A stretch of DNA of 64,000 bases from Escherichia phage UPEC03: sequence record MW250785; one strand, 5' to 3'. Numbering within the stretch: the first letter of the stretch is position 1; every line of letters begins with the position of its first letter. Positions 13,858 to 21,622 of the stretch are shown piece after piece. The notes beneath the pieces were generated by a model. That model was not told the DNA's origin. It searched no databases and was given only the letters and a program-made list of their open reading frames with translations. The translations under genes and the position numbers were made by a program.

Positions 13858-14855
13858 TTGTAATACCCCACAACATGATCGCGGTATACGCGTTCGATGA
13901 AATCGTTCCAGAATTCGCGGTCAACTTCTTTCGGATATGTTGAAATCGCTGCAAGCCGTTCGACTTCGCCCATGACTTCTTCCAGCTTTTCCTGTACGGT
14001 TGCGAACGGTACGCCGCCAGCTTTAACCAGTTTCAGGAATGCGCTATCAGGCAGAGGATAAACGATATCACCATCTTTGTAAATCTGGATCAACTGCATA
14101 CCACCGCGCAACGCGTGACTTAAAGCCTTCCAGTCGATGCCGTTGTTGGCTTCTGCTTGTCGTGCGCGTTCTCCGTATTCATCCCAGAGTTTGTACACTG
14201 ACTTACGCATTTCATCGGCTTTGATCGTGAACTGGAATTTACGCCCCAGCACTTCATAGAAGTCCTGACAACCAGATTTCATTGTCGTGTCGGTAACGAA
14301 TCGGCAGAACTCGTTTGTAGGGAAACGATTCTTGATGTCAGACACTTTCACTTCACGCGTATAGCGTTTCATATCTGGTGTGAATTCCTGAATACCACCG
14401 ATCGTTTCGGTTTCTTTCAGTACATCGACAACTTCGCGCAGTGCAGCCAGTCGGGAACCTTTCACACCATATTTTGCGGCTTGCTTGCGAACATAACCGA
14501 ACAGGCCAGTTAGTTCAGTGGTGTAAAAACGCCAGCGGTTAGCGCGGATATACTGCCAGATTTCAGAGTTAGCGATCAGCTTGTCATCCGAAGCGTGAAG
14601 CATATCGAGCGCTACGGTATCACCATCACACGCAAGGCTGATAAACTTAGTCAGACTATACAACTGACGATCAACGTCGTCTACGGTGTTTTTAGAGCTT
14701 TTATCGCCCGTGCTGGTGTCGATAGACTTCTTCGCAGTGCCTAACAGGATTTCGCGAGGATGAGGGAGATAGATCCCTTTGTAGTCTTTATCGCTTGTTG
14801 GTGTTTCCAGTCCGTAAAGATGGGATCCAAAAATCATTTCAGTAATCATTTTCAT
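13854..14855 (-). CDS. Pol-beta superfamily nucleotidyltransferase-domain protein, function unknown
   Basis: N-terminal GSHLYGLETPTSDKDYKGIY matches the G[GS]x9-13Dx[DE] NTase signature; ATG at 14855 (listed 14870 start is TTG) overlaps HNH stop as TAATG. Confidence 0.6.
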   Translation of the reverse strand: MKMITEMIFGSHLYGLETPTSDKDYKGIYLPHPREILLGTAKKSIDTSTGDKSSKNTVDDVDRQLYSLTKFISLACDGDTVALDMLHASDDKLIANSEIWQYIRANRWRFYTTELTGLFGYVRKQAAKYGVKGSRLAALREVVDVLKETETIGGIQEFTPDMKRYTREVKVSDIKNRFPTNEFCRFVTDTTMKSGCQDFYEVLGRKFQFTIKADEMRKSVYKLWDEYGERARQAEANNGIDWKALSHALRGGMQLIQIYKDGDIVYPLPDSAFLKLVKAGGVPFATVQEKLEEVMGEVERLAAISTYPKEVDREFWNDFIERVYRDHVVGYYK

Positions 14856-15613
14856 TATACAAATCTCCAATAAAACCCTTTATGAGTTTTTCTTTTACCG
14901 TTACAGCATGAACTTACATGCCCTTTGTTATACCCCATTTCAACGGCTTCCACAATACCACCATTTAAAATAGTTTCTCTTTCTGTTTTGATACATTTCA
15001 TAATCAAAGGTTTTATCAATTCCGTCTTCTTTTGTGAAATATTAGCTAATGCAATTACATTTCTGATATCAGATTCACTCATTAAATCAGAAATCTTCTT
15101 TCTTAACCATACATAGCCTTGACTTTTGGCAAGTTTGCCGGAGCAACATTCATGAATATGACTAGGGTTAAATCCACGCAATTTCATTTCTTGCCGACCG
15201 CCTAATATGATAATCTCGTCTCCTGTTTCAAGGTTGAATCCGACAACTGGAATTATTTGCCGTTCCGACATTTTCTTTCTCGCTTCTTTCGTGAATATTG
15301 TAAGAGATTTTAATTTTCTCGCGTCGCTCATTTGCGAAGATGTCGTTTTGTATTTCTTAGTATTATGAGACATACGGAAAAAAGCATATCTCATTTTATC
15401 ACCAGCATACTTAGCAAGTAGATGATGAGCAAGATAATGCTCTTTATATGTTAAATATACTAAATTTTCGGGTTCATCAGTACCACCTAATGACTTAGCA
15501 ACGATATGGTGTATATCATAACCGCGCTTTCTATACTTTTTCGAGTAACCTTTAGGTATATCTCTTCTTTTTGCCAATGTAATTAGTTGGTCGTAAATAC
15601 GCTTATAGTTCAT
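14855..15613 (-). CDS. HNH homing endonuclease-like protein
   Basis: GYDIHHIVAKSLGGTDEPENLVYLTYKEHYLAHH HNH motif; ATG at 15613 with AAAGGAGAG SD (listed start is GTG). Confidence 0.75.
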   Translation of the reverse strand: MNYKRIYDQLITLAKRRDIPKGYSKKYRKRGYDIHHIVAKSLGGTDEPENLVYLTYKEHYLAHHLLAKYAGDKMRYAFFRMSHNTKKYKTTSSQMSDARKLKSLTIFTKEARKKMSERQIIPVVGFNLETGDEIIILGGRQEMKLRGFNPSHIHECCSGKLAKSQGYVWLRKKISDLMSESDIRNVIALANISQKKTELIKPLIMKCIKTERETILNGGIVEAVEMGYNKGHVSSCCNGKRKTHKGFYWRFV

Positions 15614-15743
15614 ACACTCTCCTTTAGGCGTATTTATCACTTAAAATCCGAACACGGTTTCCATAATCATTTTCATCAGAATTCAACCTTTAATGTTTTT
15701 GCGATCCCGCGCAATTCCGCGGTAGTAATAACAGGGATCATAA

Positions 15744-16207: not shown

Positions 16208-16285
16208 TTTTCTTCCTTTTCATTATTCATGCGGTATGTGTATATAATACAAAAGCCCTCACGCGAACGCAAGGGCTTTTTTAAT
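16208..16285 (-). promoter_or_regulatory. Terminator-promoter-leader module (copy 2 of 6)
   Basis: Minus strand AAAAAAGCCC-TTGCGT-N17-TATTAT after NatV stop; hairpin 16251-16282. Confidence 0.45.
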
Positions 16286-16291
16286 CTTTTA

Positions 16292-17348
16292 TCAGAGTCC
16301 CGTGAAAGCTACAACGATTTGATAGTGGTCATCGAAGAATTCCCCTTGTCGTTGTACGACCTCATGTAAGGGCATCCAGAACGCCTCTAACGCATCGTCA
16401 GAACCGCCCATAATGCGGGGCAGACTACCATCATTGTTAGGCTCTAACTTGATGTACTGCGCCACAGTCGGTTTTGAGAAGTGTACGGAACGCTTCGGAT
16501 GATCGAACAACATCGAATTGCGGATTGAACCACGGATAACCTTTTCAGGAACCTTGATCCGTACCTCTTCGAGCAGTTCGCGGATCGCACAATCCAGGAA
16601 CGTTTCATTTGCGTTTTTGTGTCCGCCGGGAAGGGCTAACGCGTCTTTACCTGGGGCGAACTTACGACGAATTACCAGCAGGTGATTGTTGCACACAACC
16701 ACACTATCACCCGTGCAACAGTTTAGCGCGTCGGGGTATGGGTAGTTTTTGAATTTCTCCAATTCGCTTTCCCATTTCTCGTATTCGTAGAATAAACGCC
16801 AGAACGTGTCTTCCATCATCCATTTGTCGATATAATCAACGGTTGCTTGAGGAACAAAGCGCAACAGTTTCTTATCCCACCCGTTTTTATGGTTAAAGAT
16901 AATCGGACGCAGATCGGTTGCTGATAGATCCTTGCCGTTAATCTGGACAGGTGGAACTGGTACGTGTGTCCATCCGAACGCTTTAAGCCAGTATGAACCT
17001 GCATCTTTTTCGTAACCGTAGATAGCGATTTTGTCGCCTTTGGTTTCCCTGATAGCAGTACGAACAGAGGTTTTCCATTTCTCTTCGTTGTAAAGATAAT
17101 CTGGAATGTGCTCAAACTGAACACGAACAACATCTTCGATCGGGAAGTTAGCGTTTAACCATGAGAAGATCATGGTTTGACGCTCACGCGCCGTCAGCGG
17201 GTTTAAAACGTTAGGGTAAGCATATGCTGAACCCAGAAGGATGTAAACGATCTTTGCTTCTCCGAGTGCTTTACGCACCATTGCTGCATGACCATTATGG
17301 AAGGGTTGGAATCTGCCAATTACGACAGCTTTATCAAATTGTTTCATA
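16292..17348 (-). CDS. natV: Bifunctional NMN adenylyltransferase / Nudix hydrolase (NatV-like)
   Basis: N-terminal cytidylyltransferase motif GRFQPFHNGH; C-terminal Nudix box GGHKNANETFLDCAIRELLEEV; ATG at 17348 with GGAG SD (listed start is GTG). Confidence 0.8.
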
Positions 17349-17520
17349 ACGTGCTCCACGTTTAAAGGTTAATCATAAAACAGACGCAATCACCAATACA
17401 CCAAGAAAACCGCCAATAAAGCCGAAGAATAGCGAAATGAAGATAGTAAGGATGATCTGTTTTATGTTCATTGTAGTATTCTCGTTCGGAGAAAGCCCCC
17501 GCTCTGGGGGCTTTAAACCC

Positions 17521-18447
17521 TTATTTACGAGAATCGAAAATCACTTTACCAGCGTAATCAGAACCCATGACAGTTTGAGGTACACCGCCCTGATATTTTT
17601 CCGCGATGGTCTGCTGAACATCAAGTTCTTTCCAGCGAATCATTTCTGGTGTAATGGTACGCTGCAACACGGCGTTCGCTTCGGCTTCTTTCTTAGCCGC
17701 ATACAGACGGGCATCAGCATCACGCTCGTTAGCCTGTGCAGCATTGCTACGGGCTTCTTTATCGGCAATTGCCTGAACAACTGCCTGTTGAGCGATTTGC
17801 TCTTTACGTGCCAGTTCTGCTTTCTCTGCGTTCACCTGTTCTTCACGAATTTTCGTGTTTTCAACCTGCTTCTTGATCGCTTCCGGCAGGTCGATATCCT
17901 GCAAGAATACCTGTTTCACGGTGTAACCGTAAGGGCGGGCATACTCTTCAACTTCCTGCTGGATCGCGATCTGTAGCTGGCTTTGAACTTCTGCATTATA
18001 CAGATCCTGTGCTTTCGGTACAGATTTACCGAACTCACGGACAGTTGACAGAAGTTTTTCAGTCACATATTTATCCAGCGCCTGATCCTGACTACCCGCA
18101 TTGATACGGTTGATCGGGGCTTTGCTACCATCGAACTGTAACATCACGGTCATATCCACAGTGGATTTGAATTTATCCTGGGACGGAACCTGCAATTTGT
18201 CAAACTTCATTGCGATGTCTTTGGTGTTGAACACCTCGAAATCAGCCAGTGGATTTACCAGGTGGAAACCAGGCAGAACAGGCTTCGGTGAAACTTTACC
18301 CATGAAGGTTTGAGTTTTTACCGTACCATCCTGAACGATAGTGTACGAGTTCGGAACCAGCCACAGAGCGGCGATTACGCCCAGAGCGATCAGTGTGGTT
18401 TTCTTCGGGTTGTTTACGATAGTGTTTAAGTTCATCATTATTTCCAT
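17521..18447 (-). CDS. SPFH / Band 7 (prohibitin, HflC/K-like) membrane protein
   Basis: N-terminal TM segment LIALGVIAALWLV, SPFH-like core, A/E/K/Q-rich coiled-coil C-terminus. Confidence 0.7.
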   Translation of the reverse strand: MEIMMNLNTIVNNPKKTTLIALGVIAALWLVPNSYTIVQDGTVKTQTFMGKVSPKPVLPGFHLVNPLADFEVFNTKDIAMKFDKLQVPSQDKFKSTVDMTVMLQFDGSKAPINRINAGSQDQALDKYVTEKLLSTVREFGKSVPKAQDLYNAEVQSQLQIAIQQEVEEYARPYGYTVKQVFLQDIDLPEAIKKQVENTKIREEQVNAEKAELARKEQIAQQAVVQAIADKEARSNAAQANERDADARLYAAKKEAEANAVLQRTITPEMIRWKELDVQQTIAEKYQGGVPQTVMGSDYAGKVIFDSRK

Positions 18448-18508
18448 TGGGTTTATGTTTCAATTCGATAGTTATTCTATCATCACTTTTTCGCTTGTCA
18501 AACTCTTT

Positions 18509-18898
18509 TTAAGAAAGTTTTGTCAGCTTGTAAATCGTTTGATAGCACAAGCCTTTGATCTCGTCCAGGACGTTCTTCAATGAACTATCTACTGAATCAT
18601 AGATTTCGTTGGCTTCATCGGCTATTTTACGGAGATACGCGACCGTGTCAAGCACATTTTCTGTTTTTAATACGGGTTTGTATCGACCAGTAATGCCTAT
18701 ATGGATTTCGGTGAATTTATCAACCAAATCCTGCATATCTTCGTAAAACCCTTCAAATGCTTTATGCTGTGAATATGAACCAGTCGCAAAATGTGCGCTG
18801 TGCATATAGGTTACAGACATTAAGCAAGTGCCAATAAAGGCATCAATTTTACTCGCGGTATCGCGTTCTGTTACTTCGTTAAACGTCTGCATCTTCAT
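18509..18898 (-). CDS. Ferritin/Dps-like protein (tentative)
   Basis: HSAHFATGSYSQHKAFEGFYEDMQD resembles the Dps ferroxidase-site helix (two His 12 residues apart, then FE..YE..D); shorter than typical Dps. Confidence 0.4.
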   Translation of the reverse strand: MKMQTFNEVTERDTASKIDAFIGTCLMSVTYMHSAHFATGSYSQHKAFEGFYEDMQDLVDKFTEIHIGITGRYKPVLKTENVLDTVAYLRKIADEANEIYDSVDSSLKNVLDEIKGLCYQTIYKLTKLS

Positions 18899-18901
18899 CC
18901 C

Positions 18902-19186
18902 TTATGAACGATGAATAGCGGCGAATTCACTTGCAACCCGTAGCCCTAAACGTTTACATTCGGGTTCGGATTTACATTGCTTCTGCTGCCATTTTCGTTC
19001 CATGTAATTATAGAATAGTTCACTGATATTTACGCTGGGAGGGATGGTGTCAAGATATACCTGTAGCGCCGCATTGATATAGTAATCGAACTCTTTGGCG
19101 ACTACTGACCTATCATCAGCATGTGATGACGGAGACAAGATTAACAAACCAAACATCAGCGCTTTAGATATGCGTTTAATGTTCAT
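18902..19186 (-). CDS. Periplasmic lysis-inhibition protein, rI-like antiholin (tentative)
   Basis: 94 aa from ATG at 19186; signal/SAR-like N-terminus LLILSPSSHA; C-terminal two-Cys region; resemblance to T4 RI is from memory; located near tk. Confidence 0.45.
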   Translation of the reverse strand: MNIKRISKALMFGLLILSPSSHADDRSVVAKEFDYYINAALQVYLDTIPPSVNISELFYNYMERKWQQKQCKSEPECKRLGLRVASEFAAIHRS

Positions 19187-19236
19187 AAGCAATTCTCTAC
19201 GTGCTTACGGATCAACAATAGATCCGTTCCTGTATA

Positions 19237-19244
19237 TATTTATA
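19237..19244 (-). promoter_or_regulatory. Candidate T4-type late promoter (TATAAATA on minus strand)
   Basis: Exact TATAAATA about 50 nt upstream of the rI-like ATG, just downstream of a terminator. Confidence 0.35.
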
Positions 19245-19272
19245 GCAAAAAAGGGGCGATTCGCCCCTTATG
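19245..19272 (-). terminator. Intrinsic terminator (minus-strand orientation)
   Basis: GGGGCGAATCGCCCC followed by a T-run on the minus strand, after the stop of gene 19294-19686. Confidence 0.5.
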
Positions 19273-19293: not shown

Positions 19294-19686
19294 TCAAGTT
19301 ATCTCATACCAGCATAAGCTACGCTCAAAAGCGCGGATCTTATTTGCGTTCTCGATATTTTCATCCCATCCAATCACGCCAGCTTTCATCCGGCGTAACT
19401 CCTGACGCATTTTAGCGCGTACTTTCGAATCAATCTTTTTGACTGCGATTGAAAGCATCGCGGAGATATCACGATGAGCTTTGTTACCGTCGCGATTCAG
19501 GTTTTTATCGAACCGGATATATGCACAACCTGATTTGTGTTTCCAGTTGGTTGAGTACCAACGAATACCATCAGGGCTTTCTCCGTGCTGTGCATAATAC
19601 TGTGAAAATGCTTTTGTCTCTTCGATTTGTTCGATAGAGGACTTATCACGGACTGGAACATATTTCTTACGGTAAGTACGGCTCAT
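19294..19686 (-). CDS. Hypothetical basic protein (130 aa)
   Basis: ORF with ATG start between tk and rI-like gene. Confidence 0.45.
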   Translation of the reverse strand: MSRTYRKKYVPVRDKSSIEQIEETKAFSQYYAQHGESPDGIRWYSTNWKHKSGCAYIRFDKNLNRDGNKAHRDISAMLSIAVKKIDSKVRAKMRQELRRMKAGVIGWDENIENANKIRAFERSLCWYEIT

Positions 19687-20699: not shown

Positions 20700-20904
20700 G
20701 ATTAGCTCGCTCCACCGCTACCGCATCACGAACAGCATCGGTGATTTCATTTTCAACGAAATCCAGGATATCCGCTGTAATATCGTCGATACAGGATTGA
20801 TTGTAGTTACGTGAATCAGGATCATCATCTTCGGCATAATCCTGATACGCTTCGCCCAGTTGTTTCAGCTTGTGTTTTAACAGCTTTTGTTCTTGCGGTC
20901 TCAT
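20692..20904 (-). CDS. Hypothetical acidic protein (70 aa)
   Basis: Coupled ORF downstream of macrodomain gene. Confidence 0.4.
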   Translation of the reverse strand: MRPQEQKLLKHKLKQLGEAYQDYAEDDDPDSRNYNQSCIDDITADILDFVENEITDAVRDAVAVERANHD

Positions 20905-21398
20905 GATAAATCCGCCTTATGTGGATCAACCGATGGATCGAAGTGAACAACGATGATTGGATAATCACCCGTACACTCGTCGATAATGGCGCTAATACGC
21001 AACCAATCGCCACCAGCAAGCCCCGCACCGATAAGAGGGGTAATGATAGGCAATTTTTCAGGAAACGCACTGGCGCGTTCTACGGCGCTCACAAAGCATG
21101 ATCGGATTGCGTCATAATCCACTTGCGGGCCAGTACCCCAGAATTTAAACTGAGTGTAGGCATTGAAGACAATCTGACCTTCTTCCGTCATGTAGATGGA
21201 GTTAGTGCCTAACTTACGCTGGTCTCCTTTCATCGTCAATGCATCAATTTTGAACGCACCAGGGATTTTGTGCTTCACTTCTTTAGCAATACCCGCACCC
21301 ATGTTGCAATAACAGTTACACCCATGAATCAAGTGTACTTTTCGTTTCAGGAACAACTCTACAGCGTTCCCTTTGATTTCTTTAATAATCATTTTCAT
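20901..21398 (-). CDS. Macrodomain protein, TARG1/DarG-like (putative ADP-ribosyl hydrolase)
   Basis: HLIHGCNCYCNMGAGIA and PLIGAGLAGGDW resemble the TARG1 (C6orf130)/DarG macrodomain motifs; ATG at 21398. Confidence 0.65.
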   Translation of the reverse strand: MKMIIKEIKGNAVELFLKRKVHLIHGCNCYCNMGAGIAKEVKHKIPGAFKIDALTMKGDQRKLGTNSIYMTEEGQIVFNAYTQFKFWGTGPQVDYDAIRSCFVSAVERASAFPEKLPIITPLIGAGLAGGDWLRISAIIDECTGDYPIIVVHFDPSVDPHKADLS

Positions 21399-21622
21399 CA
21401 CCTGTATAGTGGCGGTAAGCCAGCACAGCCAGCCCCGCGATCACAACAATAACACACATTAAGATATAACCTGTGTTCATTTAAATTGGTCATCCCATCT
21501 TTGCCACGCTTCCAACTCGTCATCATATACAGGGAACGAGCTTTCGTTTGGCTTTTTAACGTAATACCAGATAATGATTGCAGCAGCAATCACACACCCA
21601 TAAAAGATCACTAATCCCAACA

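Follow-up and report, generated by a model that had tools for sequence, protein, structure and literature searches.

Why does a T4-like phage carry a gene for an SPFH membrane protein directly beside a gene for a Dps-like protein, and do the two belong together? The question is raised by a 64,000-nt stretch of Escherichia phage UPEC03 DNA (record MW250785), called the window below. An earlier note, made from the letters of the window, had described the pair as host-type stress or membrane functions carried in the phage early region. We found both open reading frames (ORFs) where the note had placed them, on the minus strand at 17521..18447 (308 aa) and 18509..18898 (129 aa). Its two domain calls, SPFH and ferritin/Dps-like, were right: in the profile searches that it had proposed, the larger protein matched Pfam PF01145, and the profile of the smaller protein's family led to Dps. 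The identities of the proteins can be regarded as very likely correct. The best explanation of the locus as a whole is probably that of two unrelated accessory genes, one encoding a minimal Dps-like protein, RI.-1, the other an SPFH protein, which are neighbours by chance.

Dps-like features of the RI.-1 family

The 129-aa ORF matched the Pfam family DUF5856 (E=5e-25, 88.8 bits against a cut-off of 34.6). An exhaustive family search of 1.8 billion representative proteins yielded 838 clusters, and 119 compact family members were aligned for the conservation counts and the family profile. His36, His45, Asp60, Glu64 and Tyr123 are invariant in this alignment (119/119). His33 is present in 111 of the 119 sequences and belongs, with Tyr52, Gly68, Thr121 and Leu125, to the positions conserved in at least 90% of the members. 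The His36, His45, Asp60 and Glu64 set is kept in the T4, Aeromonas-type and Ackermannviridae members. The earlier note had made its Dps assignment depend on the presence of ferroxidase-site residues; these four, found in every aligned member, align to Dps ligands.

Comparison of the family profile with all PDB sequences put Dps proteins on top, with HP-NAP at E=1.3e-4 and further matches to Dps of S. aureus, Deinococcus, Bacillus, Yersinia, Listeria and E. coli. In the HP-NAP alignment His36, His45, Asp60 and Glu64 correspond to His25, His37, Asp52 and Glu56. When the family was aligned by hhalign with a single E. coli Dps sequence, that of MG1655 (E=0.0017), His33, His45, Glu49, Asp60 and Glu64 fell on His51, His63, Asp67, Asp78 and Glu82. 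The Dps ferroxidase centre is built from two His and an Asp of one monomer and an Asp and a Glu of its neighbour, in E. coli residues 51, 63, 67, 78 and 82 (PMC6675082). The two alignments disagree only on the counterpart of position 51, which is either His33 or His36, one turn apart in helix A. Searches with the single small-ORF sequence were weak (phmmer reached PDB Dps entries only at E~0.3-1, and NCBIfam gave nothing relevant), so that the family profile was needed for the Dps case.

The AlphaFold2 (AF2) model of the RI.-1 orthologue, which is of very high confidence (pLDDT 92.5), shows four helices packed in a bundle, with 14 residues in the crossover from B to C. Such a bundle with a long B-C crossover, together with structural similarity to ferritin, Bfr and Dps, marks the ferritin-like superfamily, to which the protein belongs; the lowest E-values in a Foldseek search with the model were those of Dps proteins. 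His45 and the Asp60/Glu64 pair lie on the same helix B, 15-19 residues and ~22 Å apart. They are jointly invariant in spite of this distance, for which the simplest explanation would be that, as in Dps, the residues of two subunits meet in one site at a two-fold dimer interface. By analogy with Dps, we infer that a metal site is assembled across such a dimer with antiparallel B helices. Helices C and D have no invariant or nearly invariant Glu or His in the 119-member alignment, which excludes an intrasubunit di-iron site of the ferritin/bacterioferritin type, built from Glu in helices A and C and ExxH in helices B and D.

Bacterial Dps proteins (E. coli Dps, HP-NAP, Listeria Dps) and the phage protein thus share the four-helix bundle with its long B-C crossover, two His where helix A ends and helix B starts, an Asp-x3-Glu motif 15 and 19 residues further on, and a conserved Tyr within the 'FEExY' stretch of helix B. 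The phage protein differs in being shorter (127-129 aa vs 144-167 aa) and acidic, in lacking the BC helix and the Lys-rich tail, and in its unconserved fifth ligand. Its family, unlike Dps, has an extra invariant C-terminal T-x-Y-x-L motif, occurs in viruses only and stays under the Pfam Ferritin threshold. By its sequences, DUF5856/RI.-1 is a distinct viral family of mini-Dps-like proteins.

The gene belongs to the rI region of T4-like phages. Homologues of rI.-1 were detected by tblastn in 1462 phage records, which include T4 (35% identity), Aeromonas phages, where the gene is annotated rI.-1, and Ackermannviridae. The T4 gene order is tk, rI.1, rI, rI.-1, and that of the window is tk, a 130-aa ORF, rI, the 129-aa ORF. 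Because the two orders match, the 129-aa ORF is the orthologue of T4 rI.-1 by position as well as by sequence. The elements concerned are:

18509..18898, minus strand: rI.-1 orthologue (DUF5856) for a mini Dps-like protein of the ferritin fold; 129 aa when read from the first ATG, but more likely 127 aa, from ATG 18892
18902..19192, minus strand: rI, the antiholin of lysis inhibition, with ATG 19186 as its likely start; match to Pfam Antiholin PF24205 at E=3.9e-25; PHROG 1246 'lysis inhibition'
19237..19244, minus strand: TATAAATA, a late promoter motif of the T4 type that precedes rI by ~45 nt; from a DNA motif search

The rI stop codon (18902-18904) is 3 nt ahead of the first rI.-1 ATG and 9 nt ahead of the second (18892). 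The second ATG has an AAGGGA Shine-Dalgarno sequence 5 nt upstream and yields the 127-aa protein of the databases. rI is located directly upstream of rI.-1 alike in T4, IME13 and Margaery. T4 RI.-1 ('MobD.6'; DUF5856) resembles the window protein in length, in its place just downstream of rI, in the invariant residues and in the 35% identity. The T4 gene differs in its downstream neighbours, which are mobD.x genes, whereas those of the window gene are the SPFH gene and a gene for a bifunctional NMN adenylyltransferase (NMNAT)/Nudix hydrolase. RefSeq names T4 mobD.4 (60 aa) 'molybdopterin-guanine dinucleotide biosynthesis protein MobD', an apparent gene-name collision.

In the account of Golec et al. 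2010 (PMC2962797), T4 RI.-1 is hydrophilic and 129 aa long, and its function is given as unknown. Over-expression of T4 rI.-1 slightly lengthened the lysis profile, delayed the collapse of lysis inhibition and acted in synergy with rIII (PMC2962797). The T4 rI operon was reported to carry a late promoter (PMC2962797). A ferritin/Dps relationship of RI.-1 is mentioned neither by Golec et al. 2010 (PMC2962797) nor in Abedon's 2019 review, and literature searches on DUF5856 and on Dps/ferritin-like proteins in T4 turned up no functional study beyond Golec et al. 2010.

More distant members of the family carry the same invariant residues in very different surroundings. One adjoins the primase gene of the Ackermannviridae phage EP75, another a GIY-YIG endonuclease gene. 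A third belongs to a Mu-like head-morphogenesis module (L016/L017, 6001-6354) with the order portal, MuF-like gene, DUF5856, tail genes; it comes directly 3' of the MuF-like head gene, and the start of the DUF5856 gene abuts the end of the MuF gene. A fourth is embedded mid-way in a 1934-aa protein (L014, 5001-10805). A Pfam scan of ten longer family members (up to 1934 aa) found no domain besides DUF5856. Two metagenomic scaffolds whose giant-virus content is clear also carry family members (L011, 5001-5351; L021, 6001-6357), in which the invariant His/His/Asp/Glu set is kept. One of these scaffolds encodes an mRNA-capping enzyme and TFIIB; the other, of 164 kb, encodes a major capsid protein of nucleocytoplasmic large DNA viruses (NCLDV), a capping enzyme, TFIIB, a RING protein and a ubiquitin (UCH) hydrolase. 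By the gene content of these scaffolds, the DUF5856 family spans phages and eukaryotic giant viruses. The description host-type does not suit the Dps-like gene, which was not captured from a host: as T4 rI.-1 it belongs to an old family, specific to viruses, that stays under the Pfam Ferritin threshold.

Possible function of RI.-1

Whether the RI.-1 family actually performs ferroxidase-type metal chemistry is a question on which we see the two answers as evenly balanced. If it does, the following course of events can be proposed. rI.-1 would be translationally coupled to rI and expressed both by read-through early transcription and from the late promoter. The product, an acidic, minimal ferritin-fold protein, would be cytoplasmic. 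Its helices A and B carry the Dps-type ferroxidase ligands: one end of the bundle has His36 (with His33) and His45, and Asp60 and Glu64 follow 15-19 residues further along helix B. The protein would dimerise, maybe form higher oligomers such as a dodecamer, and thereby build Dps-type metal sites, at which Fe(II) would be bound and oxidised, H2O2 being the most likely oxidant. In an infected cell that is unable to induce its own OxyR/Dps response, iron would thus be buffered and Fenton damage kept down. Given the coupling to rI and the late promoter, the effect might be greatest during the hours of lysis inhibition. A role in lysis inhibition is consistent with the mild delay of collapse observed on over-expression (PMC2962797).

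Several observations weigh against a Dps-type RI.-1. The RI.-1 orthologue had no match to Pfam Ferritin PF00210 at E<=1, and a PF00210 scan of the 119 family members matched two of them, weakly (best E=0.023). Since PF00210 was reached by 2/119 only, we file the family as Dps-like at the superfamily level, and not as belonging to the Dps family. The hhalign probability against the single Dps sequence was 15%, marking the relation to Dps as remote. The fifth ligand (Dps position 67) is Glu in the UPEC03 protein, but a carboxylate occupies the position in only 40 of the 119 members. The BC helix, which in Dps is at the two-fold interface, is missing from the AF2 model, and the geometry of the inter-subunit site is an argument, not a measurement. 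No published metal-binding or ferroxidase assay of RI.-1 was found in the literature, and the only experimental phenotype of T4 rI.-1 is the mild effect of over-expression on lysis timing.

In the strongest alternative, RI.-1 is a dedicated lysis-inhibition factor that acts through protein contacts, for example with RIII or with the cytoplasmic part of the holin T, and has no iron chemistry; the helical bundle with its conserved His, Asp and Glu would then be only a structural or Zn-binding scaffold. The tight coupling of rI.-1 to rI in T4-like phages speaks for it, as do the over-expression effects, which include prolonged lysis, synergy with rIII and relief of rIII toxicity (PMC2962797; PMC6832632). 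The same invariant residues are however found where rI is absent, in Ackermannviridae, in the Mu-like module, in the giant-virus scaffolds and in the 1934-aa protein, and what they match is not a binding surface but the catalytic metal site of Dps. The occurrence of the family in very different settings, some without rI, makes a function tied solely to T4 lysis inhibition unlikely. A general biochemical role fits the RI.-1 family better, and we regard the lysis-inhibition factor as a minority possibility.

In at least part of the family the Dps-like domain could be virion-associated or injected and act at the very outset of infection, where it would protect the incoming DNA or counter host defence instead of buffering iron inside the cell. 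The member between the MuF-like head gene and the tail genes, with its start abutting the MuF end, and the member inside the 1934-aa protein could indicate such versions, and one member weakly matches the 'large polyvalent protein' domain LPD14 (E=4.7e-4). Against this, the T4-like gene sits among early and accessory genes outside the structural module, the remainder of the 1934-aa protein is unannotated, and no virion proteomics evidence was found. We consider a virion role improbable.

Slightly less probable still is that the protein binds DNA or regulates transcription. There are Dps proteins that bind and condense DNA, E. coli Dps by means of its Lys-rich N-terminus (PMC1874666), and database names point the same way ('starvation-inducible transcriptional regulator' in PHROG, 'DNA-binding ferritin-like protein' at JGI). 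The RI.-1 orthologue has, on the contrary, an isoelectric point (pI) of 5.3, equal to the median of the acidic family; its first 20 residues have a net charge of -1, and the N-terminal net charge of the family centres on 0. DNA binding of the E. coli Dps type is therefore unlikely in an acidic family that has no Lys-rich N-terminal tail. Pfam and NCBIfam scans detected no helix-turn-helix or other DNA-binding domain, and the labels look transferred from 'Dps'. On the same grounds, acidity and the missing tail, we rejected the PHROG label for rI.-1 as unsupported.

The SPFH protein

The neighbour of rI.-1 in the window is:

17521..18447, minus strand: SPFH/Band-7 membrane scaffold protein with an N-terminal transmembrane helix, an SPFH domain, a long coiled coil and beta strands at the C-terminus; Pfam PF01145 E=2.6e-20, PHROG 200, AF2 and Foldseek

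The match of the 308-aa protein to Pfam Band_7 PF01145 reached 73.6 bits against a cut-off of 23.6. Its AF2 model (pLDDT 80) has a transmembrane (TM) helix at residues 14-33 and an alpha/beta SPFH domain at 35-186, followed by two helices, 189-264 (~75 residues) and 267-284, and by strands at 292-306. Over the full length Foldseek aligned the model with erlin1/2, PHB1/2, HflK/C, stomatin, QmcA and flotillin (E 1e-13 to 1e-7; 1e-13 to 1e-10 for erlin, PHB, HflK/C, stomatin and QmcA), and the SPFH profile matched QmcA (8e-7), PHB2 (8e-5), PHB1 (1e-3) and HflC (7e-3) in the PDB. Membership of the SPFH/Band-7 family is solid. 'Prohibitin', the name used in the earlier note, goes further than the data: QmcA ranks above PHB2 and PHB1 in the profile search, and erlin, PHB and HflK/C lie within one order of magnitude in Foldseek, with no subfamily standing out.

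PHROG 200 and RefSeq label the protein a lipoprotein. We ruled this out, the protein having no Cys residue for a lipobox; in 29 of 32 family members the first 45 residues are free of Cys. Lys and Arg are biased across the family towards the segment before the TM helix (3.5, vs 0.9 after it), and the protein is predicted to be N-in with a periplasmic SPFH domain, like HflK/C, whose domains are periplasmic (PMC10434171). The positive-inside rule discriminated only partly when applied to E. coli HflK, HflC and QmcA as controls, a point against this topology, which we give as an inference on that account.

In its TM helix, SPFH domain, two helices and C-terminal strands the phage protein resembles HflK/C, QmcA, prohibitin 1/2, erlin 1/2, stomatin and flotillin, and with HflK/C it shares the predicted N-in topology and periplasmic SPFH domain. 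It is ~15-20% identical to the solved SPFH proteins and not assignable to one subfamily. Unlike HflK and HflC it is encoded by a single gene, not a pair. In E. coli the NfeD-like gene ybbJ abuts qmcA, whereas no NfeD-family gene stands beside the phage SPFH gene, which is flanked by a 32-aa TM ORF and the NMNAT/Nudix gene on one side and by rI.-1 on the other. A further difference from the cage-forming SPFH proteins is that it is phage-borne and common to T5-like and T4-like phages. By analogy with the proteins solved as cages, which it matches over its full length, it is most likely assembled as a ring or cage at the membrane. The SPFH gene would be transcribed from its own sigma-70-like promoter, and the single-pass protein, as a ring or cage on the inner membrane, would fence off or organise a patch of that membrane or a client, for instance FtsH.

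SPFH homologues were found in 769 records. A protein ~75% identical is encoded beside tRNA genes in a T5-like phage (Demerecviridae; VAH1, L002 3956-4903), and this identity between Straboviridae and Demerecviridae implies that unrelated families of lytic phages have exchanged the gene fairly recently. Identity drops to 54% among T4-like phages of the Aeromonas type and to ~30% for Aeh1 and for Vibrio phages, and staphylococcal Kayviruses gave weak matches. A chromosomal homologue of Morganella, 52% identical, lies amid ars, TetR and ABC-exporter genes, a non-prophage context; with this homologue and the patchy phage distribution, the term host-type suits the SPFH gene. SPFH ORFs of RB43, 44RR and Aeh1 were listed among the 'novel ORFs' in 2006 (PMC1524935), where 44RRORF097c, with an N-methylation motif, adjoins the SPFH gene 44RRORF098c (Nolan et al. 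2006). The ORF right after SPFH in IME13 (L003 5967-6215, 82 aa), in the Aeromonas-type T4-like phages, has a type-IV-pilin-like N-terminus, GFTLIELMV. Literature searches brought up no functional study of a phage SPFH protein.

Gene order and the meaning of the adjacency

The window derives from a T4-like phage of the ~178 kb class, with relatives in the genus Pseudotevenvirus (GAP161, Margaery). Over the 2-kb region around both genes, identity reaches 99.6% with Enterobacter phage EcL22g and 94-99% with ~178-kb phages of Klebsiella, Cronobacter and Citrobacter. The order of transcription is tk, 130-aa ORF (phrog_7774), rI, 129-aa ORF, 308-aa ORF, a 32-codon ORF and NMNAT/Nudix. The remaining features of the region are:

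19251..19269, minus strand: intrinsic terminator-like hairpin AAGGGGCGAATCGCCCCTT with a T-run, between the 130-aa ORF and the late promoter/rI; terminator scan
18474..18501, minus strand: sigma-70-like promoter, TTGACA, 16 nt, TG-n-TAGAAT; 11/12 matches and an extended -10
17492..17514, minus strand: GC-rich hairpin AAAGCCCCCAGAGCGGGGGCTTT without a T-run, just 3' of the SPFH stop; read from the sequence
17373..17471, minus strand: hydrophobic 32-codon ORF MNIKQIILTIFISLFFGFIGGFLGVLVIASVL, unannotated, between SPFH and NMNAT/Nudix; read from the sequence
16292..17359, minus strand: bifunctional NMN adenylyltransferase/Nudix hydrolase, likely start ATG 17347; Pfam NUDIX and CTP_transf_like

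rI.-1 and the SPFH gene are separated by 61 nt, and this gap holds the sigma-70-like site at 18474-18501. A terminator at the position of 19251..19269 is also annotated in phage Margaery. The late-promoter motif has three matches in the window, no more than expected by chance, so that the argument for it rests on its position; likewise, the total of sigma-70-like sites in the region is not above chance, and the site is a match to the consensus only. With these two points counting against them, the promoter-like signals that separate rI and rI.-1 from SPFH are suggestive only. The earlier placing of the genes in the early region was roughly right, with the qualification that a T4 late-promoter motif lies directly upstream of rI/rI.-1.

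The two genes also occur apart. In T4, rI.-1 has no SPFH gene beside it; in T5-like phages SPFH is found in a neighbourhood without rI.-1; in IME13 the order is tk, hyp, SPFH, hyp, rI, rI.-1; in Aeh1 rI.-1 and SPFH are ~50 kb apart. The 2-kb arrangement of the window is shared by ~176 records, vs 1462 with rI.-1 and 769 with SPFH. The adjacency that the earlier note had pointed out is real, but it is not conserved, the genes have separate promoter-like signals, and no functional meaning follows from it. There is no evidence for a unit: the SPFH and rI.-1 genes are incidental neighbours.

That the two form a functional module, a membrane cage combined with an iron store, is hardly credible. In its favour, the genes are adjacent and co-oriented in the ~176 phage records, and E. 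coli HflKC mutants are sensitive to oxidative stress (PMC10434171). Against it, a strong promoter-like site lies in between, T4, T5-like phages and Aeh1 lack the adjacency and IME13 has it interrupted, the phyletic patterns and histories differ (SPFH is 75% identical between T5-like and T4-like phages), and so do the predicted compartments, periplasmic for the SPFH domain and cytoplasmic for the Dps-like protein.

The other genes of the region can be described briefly. The 32-aa ORF has a grand average of hydropathy (GRAVY) of 2.06 and is identical, and unannotated as well, in phage Margaery. We considered it as a conserved partner of SPFH and rejected it: it is absent 3' of SPFH in the T5-like phage, and in IME13 the pilin-like ORF takes its place. 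The NMNAT/Nudix protein matches NCBIfam PRK05379 models at E=6e-74, yet under the equivalog cut-off, and its gene is the last before a strong terminator at 16251-16280. This NadM-type gene is an auxiliary gene of NAD salvage and is kept with the rI region in IME13 too. The 130-aa ORF (19294-19686, minus strand) holds the position of T4 rI.1, which encodes 70 aa; it had no Pfam, NCBIfam or PADLOC match and may be no rI.1 homologue. PADLOC gave no match for the small ORF or the SPFH protein either. A 261-aa ORF at 14855-15640 (minus strand) resembles a homing endonuclease; the HNH-like motif that it contains reads DIHHIV...EPENLVYLTYKEHYLAHH. A 166-aa ORF at 20901-21401 (minus strand) is by position the counterpart of T4 tk.4, which RefSeq calls a phosphatase with an A1pp motif.

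The pair of an SPFH and a Dps-like gene is as such ordinary. SPFH is a mobile accessory gene common to T5-like and T4-like phages, and the by-product of interest is the place of rI.-1 in a widespread viral mini-Dps-like family. Two misleading automatic labels, 'starvation-inducible transcriptional regulator' and 'lipoprotein', are corrected. A wider view, which we put forward as tentative and rather doubtful, would make DUF5856/RI.-1 a pan-viral minimal ferroxidase of the Dps type, ~115-130 aa long, with its iron site across the dimer interface. T4-like, Vi1-like and Mu-like-head phages and eukaryotic giant viruses would carry it to control labile iron and peroxide damage once the stress responses of the host are shut off; in T-even-type phages its wiring to the rI antiholin would keep lysis-inhibited cells alive longer. 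For decades the classical rI lysis-inhibition operon has contained T4 rI.-1 as a gene of 'function unknown', and the invariance of Dps ferroxidase ligands across >1400 phage genomes, together with the occurrence of the family in giant-virus contigs, yields a concrete and cheaply testable hypothesis. If it is true, the 'accessory' lysis-inhibition gene rI.-1 would gain its first biochemical function. Its confirmation would define a minimal viral ferritin and link the control of iron and oxidative stress to the length of phage infection.

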